A stretch of 64,000 bases of DNA from an uncultured Spirochaetota bacterium. Lineage in GTDB: Bacteria > Spirochaetota > Brevinematia > Brevinematales > JAOACQ01. Numbering within the stretch: position 1 is the first letter of the stretch; every line of letters begins with the position of its first letter. The notes under the pieces are model-generated. The model worked only from the letters and a program-made list of their open reading frames with translations, did not search any database and was not told the DNA's origin. Location: contig CAWIGG010000002.1 of the NCBI GenBank assembly GCA_963835575.1, forward strand, positions 1,824,001 to 1,888,000, in the 5' to 3' direction. A program made the position numbers and the translations under genes. Positions 6,646 through 33,477 of the stretch are shown here, one piece after another.

Positions 6646-7103
6646 TTAAAACCGATGGAATTAAATATCCGTTTTTTTATCATCGTTATTTAAGCCGGAG
6701 GCATTATATAGAACCGGATATCGGTCATGTGAAAAGCGATTGTTCTCTCGGCCGTAACTACTTAAAAGGAAAAGAAGAGCTTCCCATTACATGCATAAAA
6801 TAAAAAAGGAGAATTTTTATGAAAAAGAACATGATTGTTTCCATAATGCTGATTACTTTGAGTGTTATGATCGCGGCTTGTTCTTCGTCACCAGGTTCTT
6901 CGTCTTCGGGTTCAGGTGGAGGGTCATTATCATCGAACTCATCGTCTTCTTCTGTTTCGTCATCATCGTCAAGCTTTAAATCTTCAAGATCCAGTTCCAG
7001 TTCTTCTTCATCGGCCGGGGGAACCAATTACATTTCTGCCAACATCGGTACGTTGAGGTATGTCCCCGCCGGTACTTTCCAACGGGATGCTACAGCCGCT
7101 AAC

Positions 7104-8825
7104 GACCCTGTCGAAAAAGCCAAAAACGAGAATAAAAACTGTCTTCTGATAACCGGATAGAGTATCATTTTTCATTTCTCTATCCGGATTTTCCATTTTT
7201 CCAATTTCAAGCCGGTATTATGGCTATGAACACCCCCTTAAATCTTACCAAATATCTGGATTTTACCAATATTATGCACTATACAGAACAAAAGCCACTG
7301 GATATTAACCTTACTCTTACCCCTGAGCGTAAAACGGTCCATACCTTTACAAGAACGGATGTTACCGAATACCGGCTCAATTATTCCCATCCTCCGGCTG
7401 TACAAATCCCTGATTTCCGGCAGATCAATTTTATTTACCATTTCTTTTGAATAGTTTTTATCCCCTCTTTTGTCCACCAGATATAATGTTCTTTGCCTTG
7501 TCTTATCGGGATGTTTTAAGCATTGTCCCCTTTTCCCGCATTTTGAACAATCCGCCTGCCTGGCCTGATATTTATGGCCGAAATTACTCAATTGCCTCTG
7601 GTATCCCTTATAGCTTAATATTTTTCCATTCGGGCATATATAAGTATTATCAGCTTCATTTTTTTCAAAATCGTGTTCCCGGTATTTCATCGGTTTCGGC
7701 TTGAACCTTCCCCGATCGGTAAACCGTTCATCCCTCCCTCGAAATTGATTGTCCGGTATCACAGCTTCCATCTTCTTTTCTTCCGCCAGATATTTTAGAT
7801 TTTCTTCGCTGAAATAATTCGTGTCCCCCAGTATTGTTTTTCCTTCCAGCGGATTTGTTTCTCCTTTTATCACGCTTAAATTTTCCTCCGTTATTTCAAC
7901 CATCGGCTTCAATACTTCCCCTTCCTGGCCTAAACCAAAAGCTTCCGCCGCGGTAATCACCTGATGCTTTGAATCCACTACCGCAAGTCCATTATAACCT
8001 TGTATCACACCGTGGGAACTCTTGATTTTCGCGCTTTCGTTATCGGTAATATTCGATTGGTTTTCACGTCCCCGCTTGCCGTATTTGGGATTCTGGGATT
8101 TGAGAAAGGCATCGATTTTCTCCGCTTTCTTCCGTATTTTTTCCGATCTTTTTTGAAGCGCTTTAGACTTTTCATTTTCGCCGGAGCAGTCAGCTTGCGC
8201 GTGTTTTTCCAGTAGAAATGCCGCCAGCTTTTCAAACTTTTCCTGTTTCTTTTTCAGGTCTTTGAATGTACCGCTCCATTCTTTAGAAGCGTTTGAAGGC
8301 AATTTACAGCCGTCAACGGCGAACATGTCCCCGCCGATCAATCCCGCAGAAGAACAGACCATCAGCACAAACTGAAATACTATTTTAATCCGGTCTTTCA
8401 TACCGGTAACAAAAGCGGCTATAGTGGAATGGTCTGGAACGGTATTCCCGGACAGGGCTTTGAAGATGACATTCACCCGGCAAGCTTCCTCAATCCTGCG
8501 TGATGTAGTAATACCTTTCGAATAGGCAAAAAGGATTATTTTCAGAAGAATTGCCGGAGAAATCGCTTTCGAGCCTGTTTTATCATTTTTATAATTTATA
8601 TCAAAACAGGAAAGGTCAGCCTTTTCCTCGATTAGGAAATTGAGTGTGTGTTCATATGTTCCTTCGATCAGCTGATCTGAAAAATTGAGCGGTATCATTT
8701 CCATCTGCTCATAATTAACTGTCTTGTATCTTGCCATATAACCTTCCGCTATTGATTTATTTCATTCATTATTTTAAGCTATATCGATAATAATTTACAT
8801 TAAATATCACTTTTTCGACAGACTC
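7104..8825 (-). mobile_element. IS1182-family insertion sequence, 1722 bp
   Basis: Terminal IRs gaccctgtcgaaaaag (7104-7119) and ctttttcgacagactc (8810-8825), 14/16 match; flanking AAC duplication at 7101-7103 and 8826-8828. Confidence 0.92.
7238..8737 (-). CDS. IS1182-family DDE transposase
   Basis: LLKIILFAYSKGITTSRRIE, PDHSTIAAF, AVDGCKLPSNAS, TDNES, YICPNGK..CSKC, IEPVFGNIR. Confidence 0.95.
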   Translation of the reverse strand: MARYKTVNYEQMEMIPLNFSDQLIEGTYEHTLNFLIEEKADLSCFDINYKNDKTGSKAISPAILLKIILFAYSKGITTSRRIEEACRVNVIFKALSGNTVPDHSTIAAFVTGMKDRIKIVFQFVLMVCSSAGLIGGDMFAVDGCKLPSNASKEWSGTFKDLKKKQEKFEKLAAFLLEKHAQADCSGENEKSKALQKRSEKIRKKAEKIDAFLKSQNPKYGKRGRENQSNITDNESAKIKSSHGVIQGYNGLAVVDSKHQVITAAEAFGLGQEGEVLKPMVEITEENLSVIKGETNPLEGKTILGDTNYFSEENLKYLAEEKKMEAVIPDNQFRGRDERFTDRGRFKPKPMKYREHDFEKNEADNTYICPNGKILSYKGYQRQLSNFGHKYQARQADCSKCGKRGQCLKHPDKTRQRTLYLVDKRGDKNYSKEMVNKIDLPEIRDLYSRRMGIIEPVFGNIRSCKGMDRFTLRGKSKVNIQWLLFCIVHNIGKIQIFGKI

Positions 8826-30386: not shown

Positions 30387-31727
30387 TTATCTTCCTAAAA
30401 ACATATTGAAGATATCATTATAAGTGACAAGGACCGCAAGGATAATGATGCACACAAGCCCGACCATTTCAATAATCATCCTTACCCTTTCCGGCAGCTT
30501 TTTTCTTGTTATGAATTCCATTATGCTCAGGATAGCATGGCCTCCGTCAAAGCCAGGTATCGGCAGAAGGTTAAAAAAGCCCAGTGCCACGCTGATAAGC
30601 GCCATAAACCTCAGGAGTGTGGAGAAATCCGTTTTTGTCGCTATTTCTCCGGTTATCTGGAGAATACGCACCGGCCCGGCTATGCTTTTCTGGATATCAA
30701 TTTTTCCGAAGATAATAACGCCGAGGCTTTTAAGCGTTTCAACAAGAAATGTATTGGCCTGGTCAAAACCGTCTTTAAAAGCCATGAGAAATCCCTGTGA
30801 TCTGGTTGTTTTTGTGAATGTCGGGAAATTATTTGCCGGATTTACACCCAGATATCCCTTCCCCTCAAAGCGTGAGAGAAGGATTTTTTTAGTAAATAAA
30901 TTATTTGTATTTGAGATTGTTACCGTGACAAACTGGTTTGTCTTATTCTCAATATATTTTTCAATTTCATAATAATGAGCGATTTTTTTCCCGTCCAGCG
31001 CTGTAATCTCATCACCGGGCTGAATACCGGCCGCGGATGCCGGCGAATTGGATGTCACTGATCCCACTGTATTATAATAGAAGGGAGTCACGCCGATATA
31101 GTTCATTCCCTTTTCCTTGCTGAAGCGCGGAGCGAATCTGGAATGGTTTGTCGTATTATTCCTTAAAAAGGAAATTTCCATTTCCCTGTCCATGCTTAAG
31201 CCGATAACGCGGGGTATGTCGTTATAGCTTTCGATTTTTGTTCCGCCGAGGGACAGGATCGTATCGCCTGACCGCAGGCCGGATAACTGGGCCGGGGTCG
31301 GTTTTCCACCCGCGTCTTTCTCTAATACGGCCACCTGTGAAGTAATTAGTGTCTCCTTATAACCCGCCAGCAGAACAAAAGCCATAACAATCACGGCAAA
31401 TATATAGTTGAAGACAGGTCCTCCAAGAACTGTCGCCAGTCTTGAGAGAGCCGGCCTGTTGTACATGGCCCTGGCATCATTTACGGCTCCGGTTTCCCTG
31501 TCTTTGGATTCCTCGCCGCGCATCTTGCAGTAGCCCCCGAAGGGAATGATTGCTATGCGGTAATGCGTCTCACCGATGTTAAACCCGATCAGTTCTTTTC
31601 CGAAACCGATGGAAAAAGTGTCCACTCCGATCCCGTTTATCTTTGCCATAATAAAATGACCGAATTCATGCACAAAGACCAATACTCCCAGAACAGGCAG
31701 CGCAATAATAAAATCTAACACATTCAT
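30387..31727 (-). CDS. rseP: RIP metalloprotease RseP (site-2 protease with PDZ domains)
   Basis: HEFGHF, GGYCKM, PDZ motif SPASAAGIQPGD, NLLPIPGFDGG; start at 31727 (GGAGG upstream). Confidence 0.95.
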   Translation of the reverse strand: MNVLDFIIALPVLGVLVFVHEFGHFIMAKINGIGVDTFSIGFGKELIGFNIGETHYRIAIIPFGGYCKMRGEESKDRETGAVNDARAMYNRPALSRLATVLGGPVFNYIFAVIVMAFVLLAGYKETLITSQVAVLEKDAGGKPTPAQLSGLRSGDTILSLGGTKIESYNDIPRVIGLSMDREMEISFLRNNTTNHSRFAPRFSKEKGMNYIGVTPFYYNTVGSVTSNSPASAAGIQPGDEITALDGKKIAHYYEIEKYIENKTNQFVTVTISNTNNLFTKKILLSRFEGKGYLGVNPANNFPTFTKTTRSQGFLMAFKDGFDQANTFLVETLKSLGVIIFGKIDIQKSIAGPVRILQITGEIATKTDFSTLLRFMALISVALGFFNLLPIPGFDGGHAILSIMEFITRKKLPERVRMIIEMVGLVCIIILAVLVTYNDIFNMFLGR

Positions 31728-31909
31728 TAACTGACCTCCAAATCTGAACACATGATTTTATGGTAAAGCTTTATTTTGGTCAAGATAAAGAGCGTGAAGC
31801 AAAAAGCTATACAGGCACCCCTCTCCAATGGTTCCCAAGCGGAGCTTGCAGTGAGCCTGTCGAGCCTGCCGTCTATGATAAAAGTCAAGTGTTTTTTAAA
31901 AATTATTTT

Positions 31910-32995
31910 TTATGCCGCCTTTTTTAATATTCTTTCATATTCATTCATTTTGGTCTTATGATTTTCTTGGTCAATATATCTGTAATATTCTCCATTTTTC
32001 AGCATCCAATATATAGCGACAAGTACCTTTCTTACTAAAGCAACTCTCGCTTTGCCTTTAGTCTTGCCCTTACTCTTCTTTAAATAAAACAAATCCATCT
32101 TCCGGCTTGATTTCCTGAAATGATTTATGGATTCCACCATTAAGGTCATCGTTAAATAACGCGATTGTTTGTTTAGATGACCTATTTTTACTGTATTACC
32201 GGATGCGTCTATACCCGGTGCTGCCCTGAGATATGAACAGAAATGCTTCACGTTTTTGAATCGGTTGATATCAACAACATCTGCCATAATCCCGATTGCC
32301 ATAAAAATGCTTATCCCCATTATACTGACAAGCAGATCTATTTCTTTCTGGAACATCTTACCCGCTATCATTATCTGCTTTTTTGTCTCTTCCATTTTAT
32401 TCTCTAAGAAATTGATTATGCTTAAGAGTGATTCTATTTCCGCTCTGACAGTGTCGCTCATCTTGGCGGAAGTAAGATTTTTCTGCACATTCTGATATGA
32501 TAAGTTTGCTTTTTTAAATCCGAATATCCCGTTTTGTTTCAACAAAGAGCGGATCATATTTTTATTCATATTCTTCTGTCTTTTATATATGTCATATACC
32601 GTGAATAAACTTCTGACCTCCCGAACTTCCTTAGCCGGCATATATACCAGAGGAAACTCAACATCAGATGGATTGAATAAAATATAATACTTCAGTCTGG
32701 CGGCTATCTTTTCCGCGTCAATCTTATCCGTCTTCTTATTCGTTCGGTAGATGGTCGAAAACTTCCAGGTATTAATGATATAACACTCCTTGACAAGGTC
32801 CTTGATCTGGTCAATGAACCAGAAAGCGTTTGTTGTGGATTCCACCGCTACATAATCCTCTTTTGTCACTATTCTCTTGAACTTGCCGAAATACTCCGGC
32901 AATAAAGAGCAGCTCATTCTTTTTGGAACAATCCCTGTGTTATCAAAGCAAGCTGCTTTAAAGTTTTCATCTCCCGGGTCTACTCCGTAAAACAT
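31910..32995 (-). CDS. IS110-family DEDD transposase/recombinase
   Basis: YGVD, VAVES, KTDKID (DEDD); LVSIMGIS; APGIDASG (catalytic-Ser loop); start reassigned to ATG 32995 with GGAGGA SD. Confidence 0.93.
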   Translation of the reverse strand: MFYGVDPGDENFKAACFDNTGIVPKRMSCSLLPEYFGKFKRIVTKEDYVAVESTTNAFWFIDQIKDLVKECYIINTWKFSTIYRTNKKTDKIDAEKIAARLKYYILFNPSDVEFPLVYMPAKEVREVRSLFTVYDIYKRQKNMNKNMIRSLLKQNGIFGFKKANLSYQNVQKNLTSAKMSDTVRAEIESLLSIINFLENKMEETKKQIMIAGKMFQKEIDLLVSIMGISIFMAIGIMADVVDINRFKNVKHFCSYLRAAPGIDASGNTVKIGHLNKQSRYLTMTLMVESINHFRKSSRKMDLFYLKKSKGKTKGKARVALVRKVLVAIYWMLKNGEYYRYIDQENHKTKMNEYERILKKAA

Positions 32996-33049
32996 TTGAC
33001 ATCCTCCAACTATCGTAGTAAAATACCTTTGAGGATCAAAAATTATCCT

Positions 33050-33280
33050 TCGGTTAAATAAAGGATAAACCTTGACGGGCTGAAAGGCAGCCATTCGTCT
33101 ATTCGGGTTCGGGAGATTCCTCAATTTTATCTCCAGTCCCATTTTGTTGGTAAGGAAGAAGGCTGGACTAAACGAAGGATCGGGCTCCTGACAGGATTTC
33201 TATCCTGGCATCATAATGTCCCAGACAGGCTCCCAGCCTTCTTCTGTCTTATTAATACCTCTACAGTATTTCCTAAAGAC
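33050..33280 (-). ncRNA. Candidate IS110 bridge/seek RNA (boundaries approximate)
   Basis: 12-bp stem 33155-33166/33233-33244 encloses GAGCCTGTC and TCCTTCG (target matches); a second loop contains ATAGACG (donor-junction match). Confidence 0.7.
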
Positions 33281-33477
33281 AGATTATACCTTTCTTCCTT
33301 ATCCGTCAAGTCTTTCTATTCCTTTTATCATAACAGCGAAGGGATGGGATGGGAAGGGGTGAGGCCAGTTATTATTTTGATTAAAATTGACAATCAAAAT
33401 CCAAGCTTGTAAAATATCATTCAATAGTGATAAAATAATTTATAATTCCTATTTATTACACATCGATTGGAGGAGAT

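Follow-up and report, generated by a model that had tools for sequence, protein, structure and literature searches.

The element at this locus raised the question of where an insertion sequence belongs, and how it would move, when its ends are of the IS1111 type and its long non-coding region lies upstream of the gene, as in the IS110 group. The window, i.e. the whole stretch of 64,000 nucleotides analysed here, comes from a Spirochaetota genome. End mapping and a genome copy search delimited a single-copy IS110-family element at 31870..33338 on the minus strand (both CG copies included), which measures 1,467 bp when counted with one CG core. The core was identical at both ends, its left copy lying at 33337..33338 (-) and its right copy at 31870..31871 (-). 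Non-coding DNA amounted to 343 nt upstream and 38 nt downstream of the recombinase gene. The element is flanked by divergent rseP and batB-like genes and interrupts a REP-like repeat, the right half of which was located by flank comparison at 31811..31869 (-) and the left half at 33339..33372 (-). No copy beyond this one was found in its own genome, and an Rfam search of the window gave no match.

Removal of the element together with one CG restored a 15-mer that was present exactly four times elsewhere in the genome (0.002 expected), and this restored target word belongs to a family of abundant 13-mers. Contig C4 of the same genome holds a paralogous repeat, empty of any insertion, to which the rejoined flanks aligned over 92 bases. 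Since the restored word recurs in the genome and an empty repeat exists, the boundaries proposed in the earlier note are supported without the promoter argument used there. Words of the form TTCG[A/G]CA[A/G]GCTCA were encountered 41 times in the genome, against less than one expected, and the same REP-like target word was programmed in at least six relatives from other genomes. The search for a candidate RAYT-type transposase of the target repeat returned two weak Y1_Tnp matches. The two flanking genes, batB-like and rseP, have good sigma-70-like sites (33387-33415 (+) and 31755-31783 (-)); as these fall outside the interrupted repeat, both genes may stay intact after insertion.

A repeat scan placed the left subterminal inverted repeat at 33322..33331 (-), 7 bp inside the end, and the right one at 31875..31884 (-), 3 bp inside the end. 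The repeat had initially been described as 11 bp long; it is indeed present in that form (33322-33332 and 31874-31884), but a 10-bp reading starting from ATG is the better one, because the eleventh pair (33332 on the left) is the first T of the junction -10 box and because 7 bp on the left and 3 bp on the right then remain outside. This is the geometry of IS1111 ends (7 or 6 bp on the left and 3 bp on the right; PMC11187229), with a repeat length of 10-11 bp at the short end of the usual 11-13.

The relatives gathered for comparison represented 128 loci, the window's own and duplicates included. Named records among them were mostly from Spirochaetota and some from Bacillota. Ends were searched at loci with a complete gene end only, over 150-520 nt upstream and up to 90 nt downstream, a scan that presupposes the layout. 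Loci were retained if their two ends carried an identical 2-bp core, if they scored 12.5 or more and if the upstream region measured 200-450 nt; this left 67 loci corresponding to 56 distinct elements; loci at contig ends, fragments and loci failing the same-core test were dropped before counting. Independent support for these ends came from an unbiased repeat scan, which found the same ends in many loci, and from the guide covariation described below. The earlier note had allowed for other copies defining different ends; the three full copies found in one other genome (G276) diverged exactly at the corresponding, predicted points.

Ends of the clade followed the pattern core-5 nt-ATG on the left and CAT-3 nt-core on the right, the median non-coding lengths being 268 nt before the gene and 13 nt after it. 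The core was CG in 38 of 51 elements and TG, GG or CA in the other 13. Inverted repeats were weak in many relatives, a contiguous match of only 4 bp being found in 27 out of 56 and 9-10 of 14 being typical. The ATG...CAT signature was also displayed by IS4321 and two haloarchaeal elements. Ten loci (L038, L042, L044, L045, L047-L049, L051, L052 and L098) failed the same-core test; by eye, this group carries an extra base between core and left repeat, some of its right ends lack CG, and its register may differ.

When the two ends are joined through one CG, TTGACT (31883..31888 (-)) and TATGAT (33327..33332 (-)) come to lie 17 nt apart as predicted -35 and -10 boxes directed toward the non-coding region and the recombinase. 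The excision-circle promoter postulated in the earlier note was thus recovered at the positions given for it, and the pair was not peculiar to this element: a -35 box of at least 5/6 with a -10 box of at least 4/6 at 16-18 nt was formed in 48 of the 56 distinct elements (the window's included), 43 of these 48 at exactly 17 nt. Exceptions included the multi-copy G276 element (3-4/6). A contig built from DNA sequencing reads spanned only 31690-32010 and contained no junction, which bears neither way on circle formation. Junction promoters have been reported for IS621, ISEc11, ISEc21 and ISPpu10 (PMC11208160, PMC11187229, PMC12288879), which makes the present one an ordinary, textbook feature of the family.

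The upstream region folded better than its shuffles (z -3.2) and contained two loops with conserved stems, which covaried across relatives. In the target-binding loop, the 5' strand of the stem (beta; 33233..33244 (-), from fold and alignment) is directly followed by the first target guide (33224..33232 (-)), which at eight of nine positions is complementary to the right flank (element strand) together with one core base, the ninth being a G-U wobble. The second target guide (33180-33173; left flank plus core, 6/8) is followed by a handshake dinucleotide (33172-33171), both within 33171..33180 (-). Next comes a segment called gamma (33149..33166 (-), from fold and pairing), which closes the target-loop stem as its 3' strand and then leads, as a linker, into the donor loop. 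Of the donor guides, both placed by covariation, the first (33144..33148 (-)) is complementary to the five bases inside the left end (4/5) and the second (33096..33102 (-)) is identical to the last five bases of the right end plus the core (7/7). A folded A/T-rich hairpin followed by five T (33038..33068 (-)) may mark the end of the bridge RNA; it was not called by the terminator scan and was not conserved in the alignment. Among the relatives, one copy (L099:700-1230) lacked the left end and target loop and kept gamma, donor loop and gene, and in another locus (L025) the inside of the target loop was missing.

Guide positions were taken from the loop framework and their matches compared with those of permuted elements. 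The first target guide matched the reverse complement of its cognate right flank at 6.06 of 9 positions (permuted 3.01; n=51) and the second target guide its left flank plus core at 6.30 of 8 (permuted 3.44; n=44). Of the donor guides, the first agreed with the reverse-complemented left end at 4.11 of 5 (permuted 2.57; n=44) and the second with the right end plus core at 6.80 of 7 (permuted 6.14; n=51). None of 5,000 permutations reached the cognate score for any of the four guides, a significance which such tests overstate since the relatives are kin and not independent. Read on the element strand in the order of IS621, the target guides scored 2.75 of 9 (null 2.20) and 3.02 of 8 (null 2.99). 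Elements with non-CG cores displayed the same order as the others, with 4.62 of 9 (null 2.73; n=13) and 7.12 of 8 (null 2.84; n=8) for the two target guides. Taken individually, 40 of 44 elements favoured the IS1111 order, two tied and two favoured the other order by one base. The two handshake bases after each second guide matched the partner present after strand exchange (1.81 of 2, null 0.98, and 0.92 of 2, null 0.50; n=48) and avoided the one present before it (n=48), as do the handshake guides of IS621 (PMC13626964, Discussion).

In both loops the guide complementary to the top strand thus precedes the bottom-strand guide, which is the order of IS1111 elements (PMC11187229) and not that of the IS110 group. 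The reversal relative to IS621 that had been noticed for the target guides was confirmed and extends to the donor guides. As target and donor loops are flipped together, the arrangement amounts to an ordinary bridge reaction read on the other strand. In this flipped frame, the window's plus strand displayed left target-core-right donor at 31860-31875 and left donor-core-right target at 33330-33345, which are the products expected from the bridge rule.

The leader preceding the loops harbors a second, predicted promoter-like motif (33283..33309 (-)), with TTGACG at 33309-33304 and TATAAT at 33288-33283 separated by a suboptimal 15 nt. It had been listed in the earlier note, and its -10 box proved to occupy a homologous, conserved position: a -10-like hexamer was mostly found 37-56 nt before the first guide, with a score of at least 5 in 30 of 51 elements (11.6 in shuffles) and of at least 6 in 20 of 51 (2.1 in shuffles). 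A TG extension was frequent in distant members; in close members TTGAC preceded the hexamer by 15-18 nt, and several of these had a poor -10. That the internal TTGACG serves as an RNA helix strand only was considered and dropped, the conserved -10 being favoured. TTGAC/GTCAA occurs four times in the element, namely in the right end, in the leader, after the donor loop (33073-33078 (+)) and before the start codon. The third of these copies was conserved and had no evident -10.

Between the internal -35 and -10 boxes, directly preceding the latter, lies a segment named alpha (33289..33301 (-)), which by duplex prediction is complementary to gamma across the clade. Mean duplex energies were -17.1 kcal/mol for cognate pairs, -11.1 for non-cognate pairs and -9.3 for shuffled alpha, with 37 of 46 below -8, gamma being mis-anchored in a few of the 46 rows, which were kept. 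Substitutions favoured G-U pairs on the sense strand 28 to 11 (37 of 46 aligned). Alpha as a mere duplicate of beta was rejected: in 15 of 46 elements the distal 6-mer of gamma was completely paired by alpha, and in none of 46 by the beta side. The predicted probability of the target stem in the window's element fell from 1.00 in a short form to 0.01 in a long form; among relatives it fell by more than 0.2 in 15 of 46 and rose in none of 46, the stem mostly still forming in the long form (mean 0.84 short, 0.62 long). As a transcript from the junction contains alpha and one from the internal site does not, the two may fold differently.

Two readings of the leader were weighed. According to the first, which involves no switch, the junction promoter would make one long bridge RNA in which alpha would serve as a structural strand and close a junction or multi-loop that surrounds the donor loop; the internal boxes, -35 and -10 alike, would be by-products. 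This has somewhat less than an even chance of being right. Gamma can accommodate alpha and beta together, pairing is possible between the internal TTGACGG and CCGTCAAG downstream of the donor loop (81.7 % of cells paired), multi-loop donor regions have been reported for IS1111 orthologues (PMC11208160, section 12), and the persistence of the target stem in the long form of most relatives, the variable box spacing (15 to 18 nt) and the poor -10 of several close relatives all agree with it. The long-range TTGACGG helix, however, displayed one compensatory pair only and was not predicted by RNAalifold, a -10 box, often TG-extended, directly follows alpha in many relatives, and alpha overlaps the partner of beta by up to 9 nt, which a static fold would not need.

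The second reading, offered tentatively, is a switch between two promoters. The internal promoter would supply a short, correctly folding bridge RNA while the element is inserted; the longer junction or read-through transcript would carry alpha, which may compete for the target-loop stem, so that this RNA would act as message and not as guide. In the window's subclade a predicted antisense promoter could provide a third control. Such a switch is no more likely than a static junction within one long RNA. If the switch were true, an inserted element would have its own built-in source of bridge RNA before any circle exists, and this in a deep branch where IS1111 ends are combined with a 5' bridge RNA; for the inserted state of IS621, read-through has been reported as the RNA source (PMC13626964). 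The switch would also constitute a new mode of regulation for RNA-guided transposition, and engineers should then express the short form. The freely accessible literature that was searched contained no account of the alpha segment or of this clade; 86 bridge-RNA models have been published (10.64898/2026.10.21.760802), and the supplements of that work may include the clade.

The antisense site (TTGACA-17-TAAAAT; 32996..33024 (+)) was detected by a promoter scan over the ribosome-binding site and is predicted to direct transcription toward the bridge RNA. Among 18 loci inspected (two of them extra copies of counted elements), 15 displayed TTGAC[A/T] at this site with a readable -10; in 12 of these 15 the -10 scored at least 4/6 at 17 nt, with varied sequences in between, the background for -35-like sites taken from the whole of that strand being 15/300. 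Of the 40 more distant elements that were scored, none reached 9 of 12. A conserved promoter at this place is therefore a predicted feature of the window's subclade; the literature searched held no account of it, and antisense RNAs over the leader are known in ISPpu9 and ISPpu10 (PMC8450116, PMC12288879).

Domain and homologue analysis assigned the recombinase gene to 31910..32995 (-), coding for 361 amino acids. The protein displayed PF01548 and PF02371 and matched NF033542 (IS110 family RNA-guided transposase, NCBIfam) above cut-off. Residues D6, E52, D90, D93 and S265 were invariant in 42 homologues, in agreement with a DEDD RuvC domain followed by a Tnp domain with a catalytic serine; to judge by its sequence, it is an intact DEDD/serine protein of the IS110 family. 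A single-sequence search of solved structures gave no match, those of IS621 and ISCro4 included, while a profile search matched both. Its C-terminal motif was YLR..P....SG. Full-length relatedness to IS1111, the GL-P----S/TG motif and the length of 330-350 amino acids usual in that group were all missing (IS4321 serving as proxy). Residue 257 was an invariant arginine where the family motif has glycine (YLR..P....S), a signature of the clade, and SG was replaced by SS in many clade members. Three distant IS110-family recombinases (26% identity) were noticed in the same genome, at C2 ~474900-475700, C5 ~7100-7900 and C2 ~1620200-1620900; the first groups with ISLin1, and two copies end in TTGACA...CAT-AGA-AG.

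Best named matches of the recombinase were ISLin1, ISMch4, ISAtu7 and haloarchaeal elements (23-28% identity), which are placed next to one another at the end of the identity matrix in PMC11187229. The recombinase phylogeny suggested in the earlier note was carried out as two quick trees, computed without IS621, ISEc21, IS110 and IS1111 themselves and weak in their deep forks. Both recovered the clade (support 97 and 99) beside ISLin1 (82 in the wider group, and 88), apart from IS4321/ISShdy1 and ISEc32 and outside crown IS1111. The alternative of a distinct subgroup, also put forward in the note, stands.

The hybrid architecture stressed in that note was real as far as IS1111-type repeats and an upstream non-coding region are concerned; it was not unprecedented, upstream non-coding regions being known exceptions among IS1111 elements (PMC11187229). 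The usual downstream non-coding region of IS1111 was missing, the upstream region typical of the IS110 group was present, and the subterminal repeats exceeded the none or 2-3 bp of that group. As the defining traits of neither group were complete, the element was filed only under the broad IS110 family. It appears to work like IS1111 at its ends and like IS621 in the position of its RNA.

A crown IS1111 element whose guide RNA moved upstream recently, as in ISMtsp17, would present the same end geometry and guide order, such cases have been published (PMC11187229), and grouping with crown IS1111 was not rejected by an AU test (p=0.24). This origin is nevertheless improbable: the recombinase scored 23.9 bits against IS4321 and 103 bits against ISLin1, the clade (97-99) grouped with ISLin1 (82-88) while crown IS1111 formed its own long stem, the motif was YLR..P....S and not GL.P....SG in a protein of 361 instead of 330-350 amino acids, and the upstream RNA position was clade-wide and not recent.

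The orientation is considered fixed because both loops display the IS1111 order, also in relatives with non-palindromic cores. As the genome holds only one copy, the orientation tally relative to the REP-like repeat that the note had called for was made on relatives: all seven elements inserted in this repeat word, like the three full G276 copies, shared one orientation. The proposal that the symmetric CG core lets an IS621-like element insert either way, here backwards, draws on the palindromic core of 38 out of 51 elements, a quasi-palindromic target word (one relative, L022, scores both ways) and the small excess of the first guide in IS621 order (2.75 vs 2.20), yet it is contradicted by donor guides that are flipped as well, an unchanged order with TG, GG and CA cores, the 40 of 44 elements favouring one order and the co-orientation of these copies, and is most improbable.

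The locus is thus very probably occupied by an IS110-family element with IS1111-type ends and an upstream guide region, which is likely to be excised as a circle, to be expressed from the junction promoter and to insert in one orientation into REP-like repeats by a bridge reaction on the strand opposite its gene. Ends, core, guides, handshake dinucleotides and their covariation over about 50 elements, as well as the ISLin1 layout, can be read directly from the DNA. By analogy with IS621, ISEc11 and kin, the element would excise as a circle whose junction promoter would drive both recombinase and bridge RNA; the recombinase would bind that RNA, and strand exchange would carry the circle into the repeat in a fixed orientation, with four guide segments matching the target and the element's own ends.

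The position of the bridge RNA (5' or 3') and the handedness of the donor are therefore separate traits in the IS110 family. Since a whole clade, with programmed targets that vary among its members, joins a 5' bridge RNA to IS1111 handedness, a two-group scheme that ties the position of the RNA to the type of ends is incomplete. The move of the RNA from one end to the other that has been proposed can now be studied on real intermediates, and about 50 natural guide-target pairs are available for a branch of bridge recombinases without a characterised member in the papers found.

Compared with known systems, the element resembled the IS1111/seekRNA group (ISEc11, ISKpn4, ISPa11 and IS4321; Siddiquee et al. 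2024, PMC11187229) in its 7+3 bp, ATG repeats, predicted junction promoter, leading top-strand-complementary guide, single orientation and REP targeting (as in ISPa11). It differed from that group in its upstream guide RNA, with only 38 nt downstream, in its shorter and weaker repeats, and in a recombinase located outside the crown clade with another C-terminal motif. With IS621 and ISCro4 (Durrant et al. 2024, PMC11208160; PMC13626964) it shared a putative bridge RNA of two loops upstream of the gene, four guides into which the core is included, handshake dinucleotides that favour insertion, a predicted junction promoter and a REP target. In contrast to these, its whole donor/target frame is inverted relative to the gene and its subterminal repeats are longer; moreover, inserted IS621 relies on read-through (PMC13626964), whereas this clade displays a predicted internal promoter-like site.

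ISPpu9 and ISPpu10 (PMC8450116, PMC12288879) likewise belong to IS110 and reside in REPs; they possess a native promoter and a structured leader over which an antisense RNA runs (Asr9, Asr10), the antisense transcript being a prediction here. They lack subterminal repeats, and the accessible text of these reports does not describe an alpha-gamma pairing linked to a promoter inside the element.

ISLin1 (ISfinder; Leptospira; locus L129) was the nearest named recombinase found (24% identity) and is listed as family 'IS110' in the source data of PMC11187229. Inspection of one copy by eye revealed an upstream region of about 250 nt, the same loop framework and guide order, ATG/CAT repeats and TTGACA in the right end; unlike the present element, it has an AG core, a left repeat set 6 nt away from that core, and no evident alpha. 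The end of a second copy lies directly upstream at this locus, and a tandem 36-bp target repeat follows the right end. IS1111-type ends combined with an upstream or two-sided non-coding region are also known from ISMtsp17, ISHvo10 and ISAcp5 (PMC11187229), and two haloarchaeal relatives carried about 200 nt of non-coding DNA on each side. ISMtsp17 is a single exception inside crown IS1111, whereas the layout described here is fixed over a clade.
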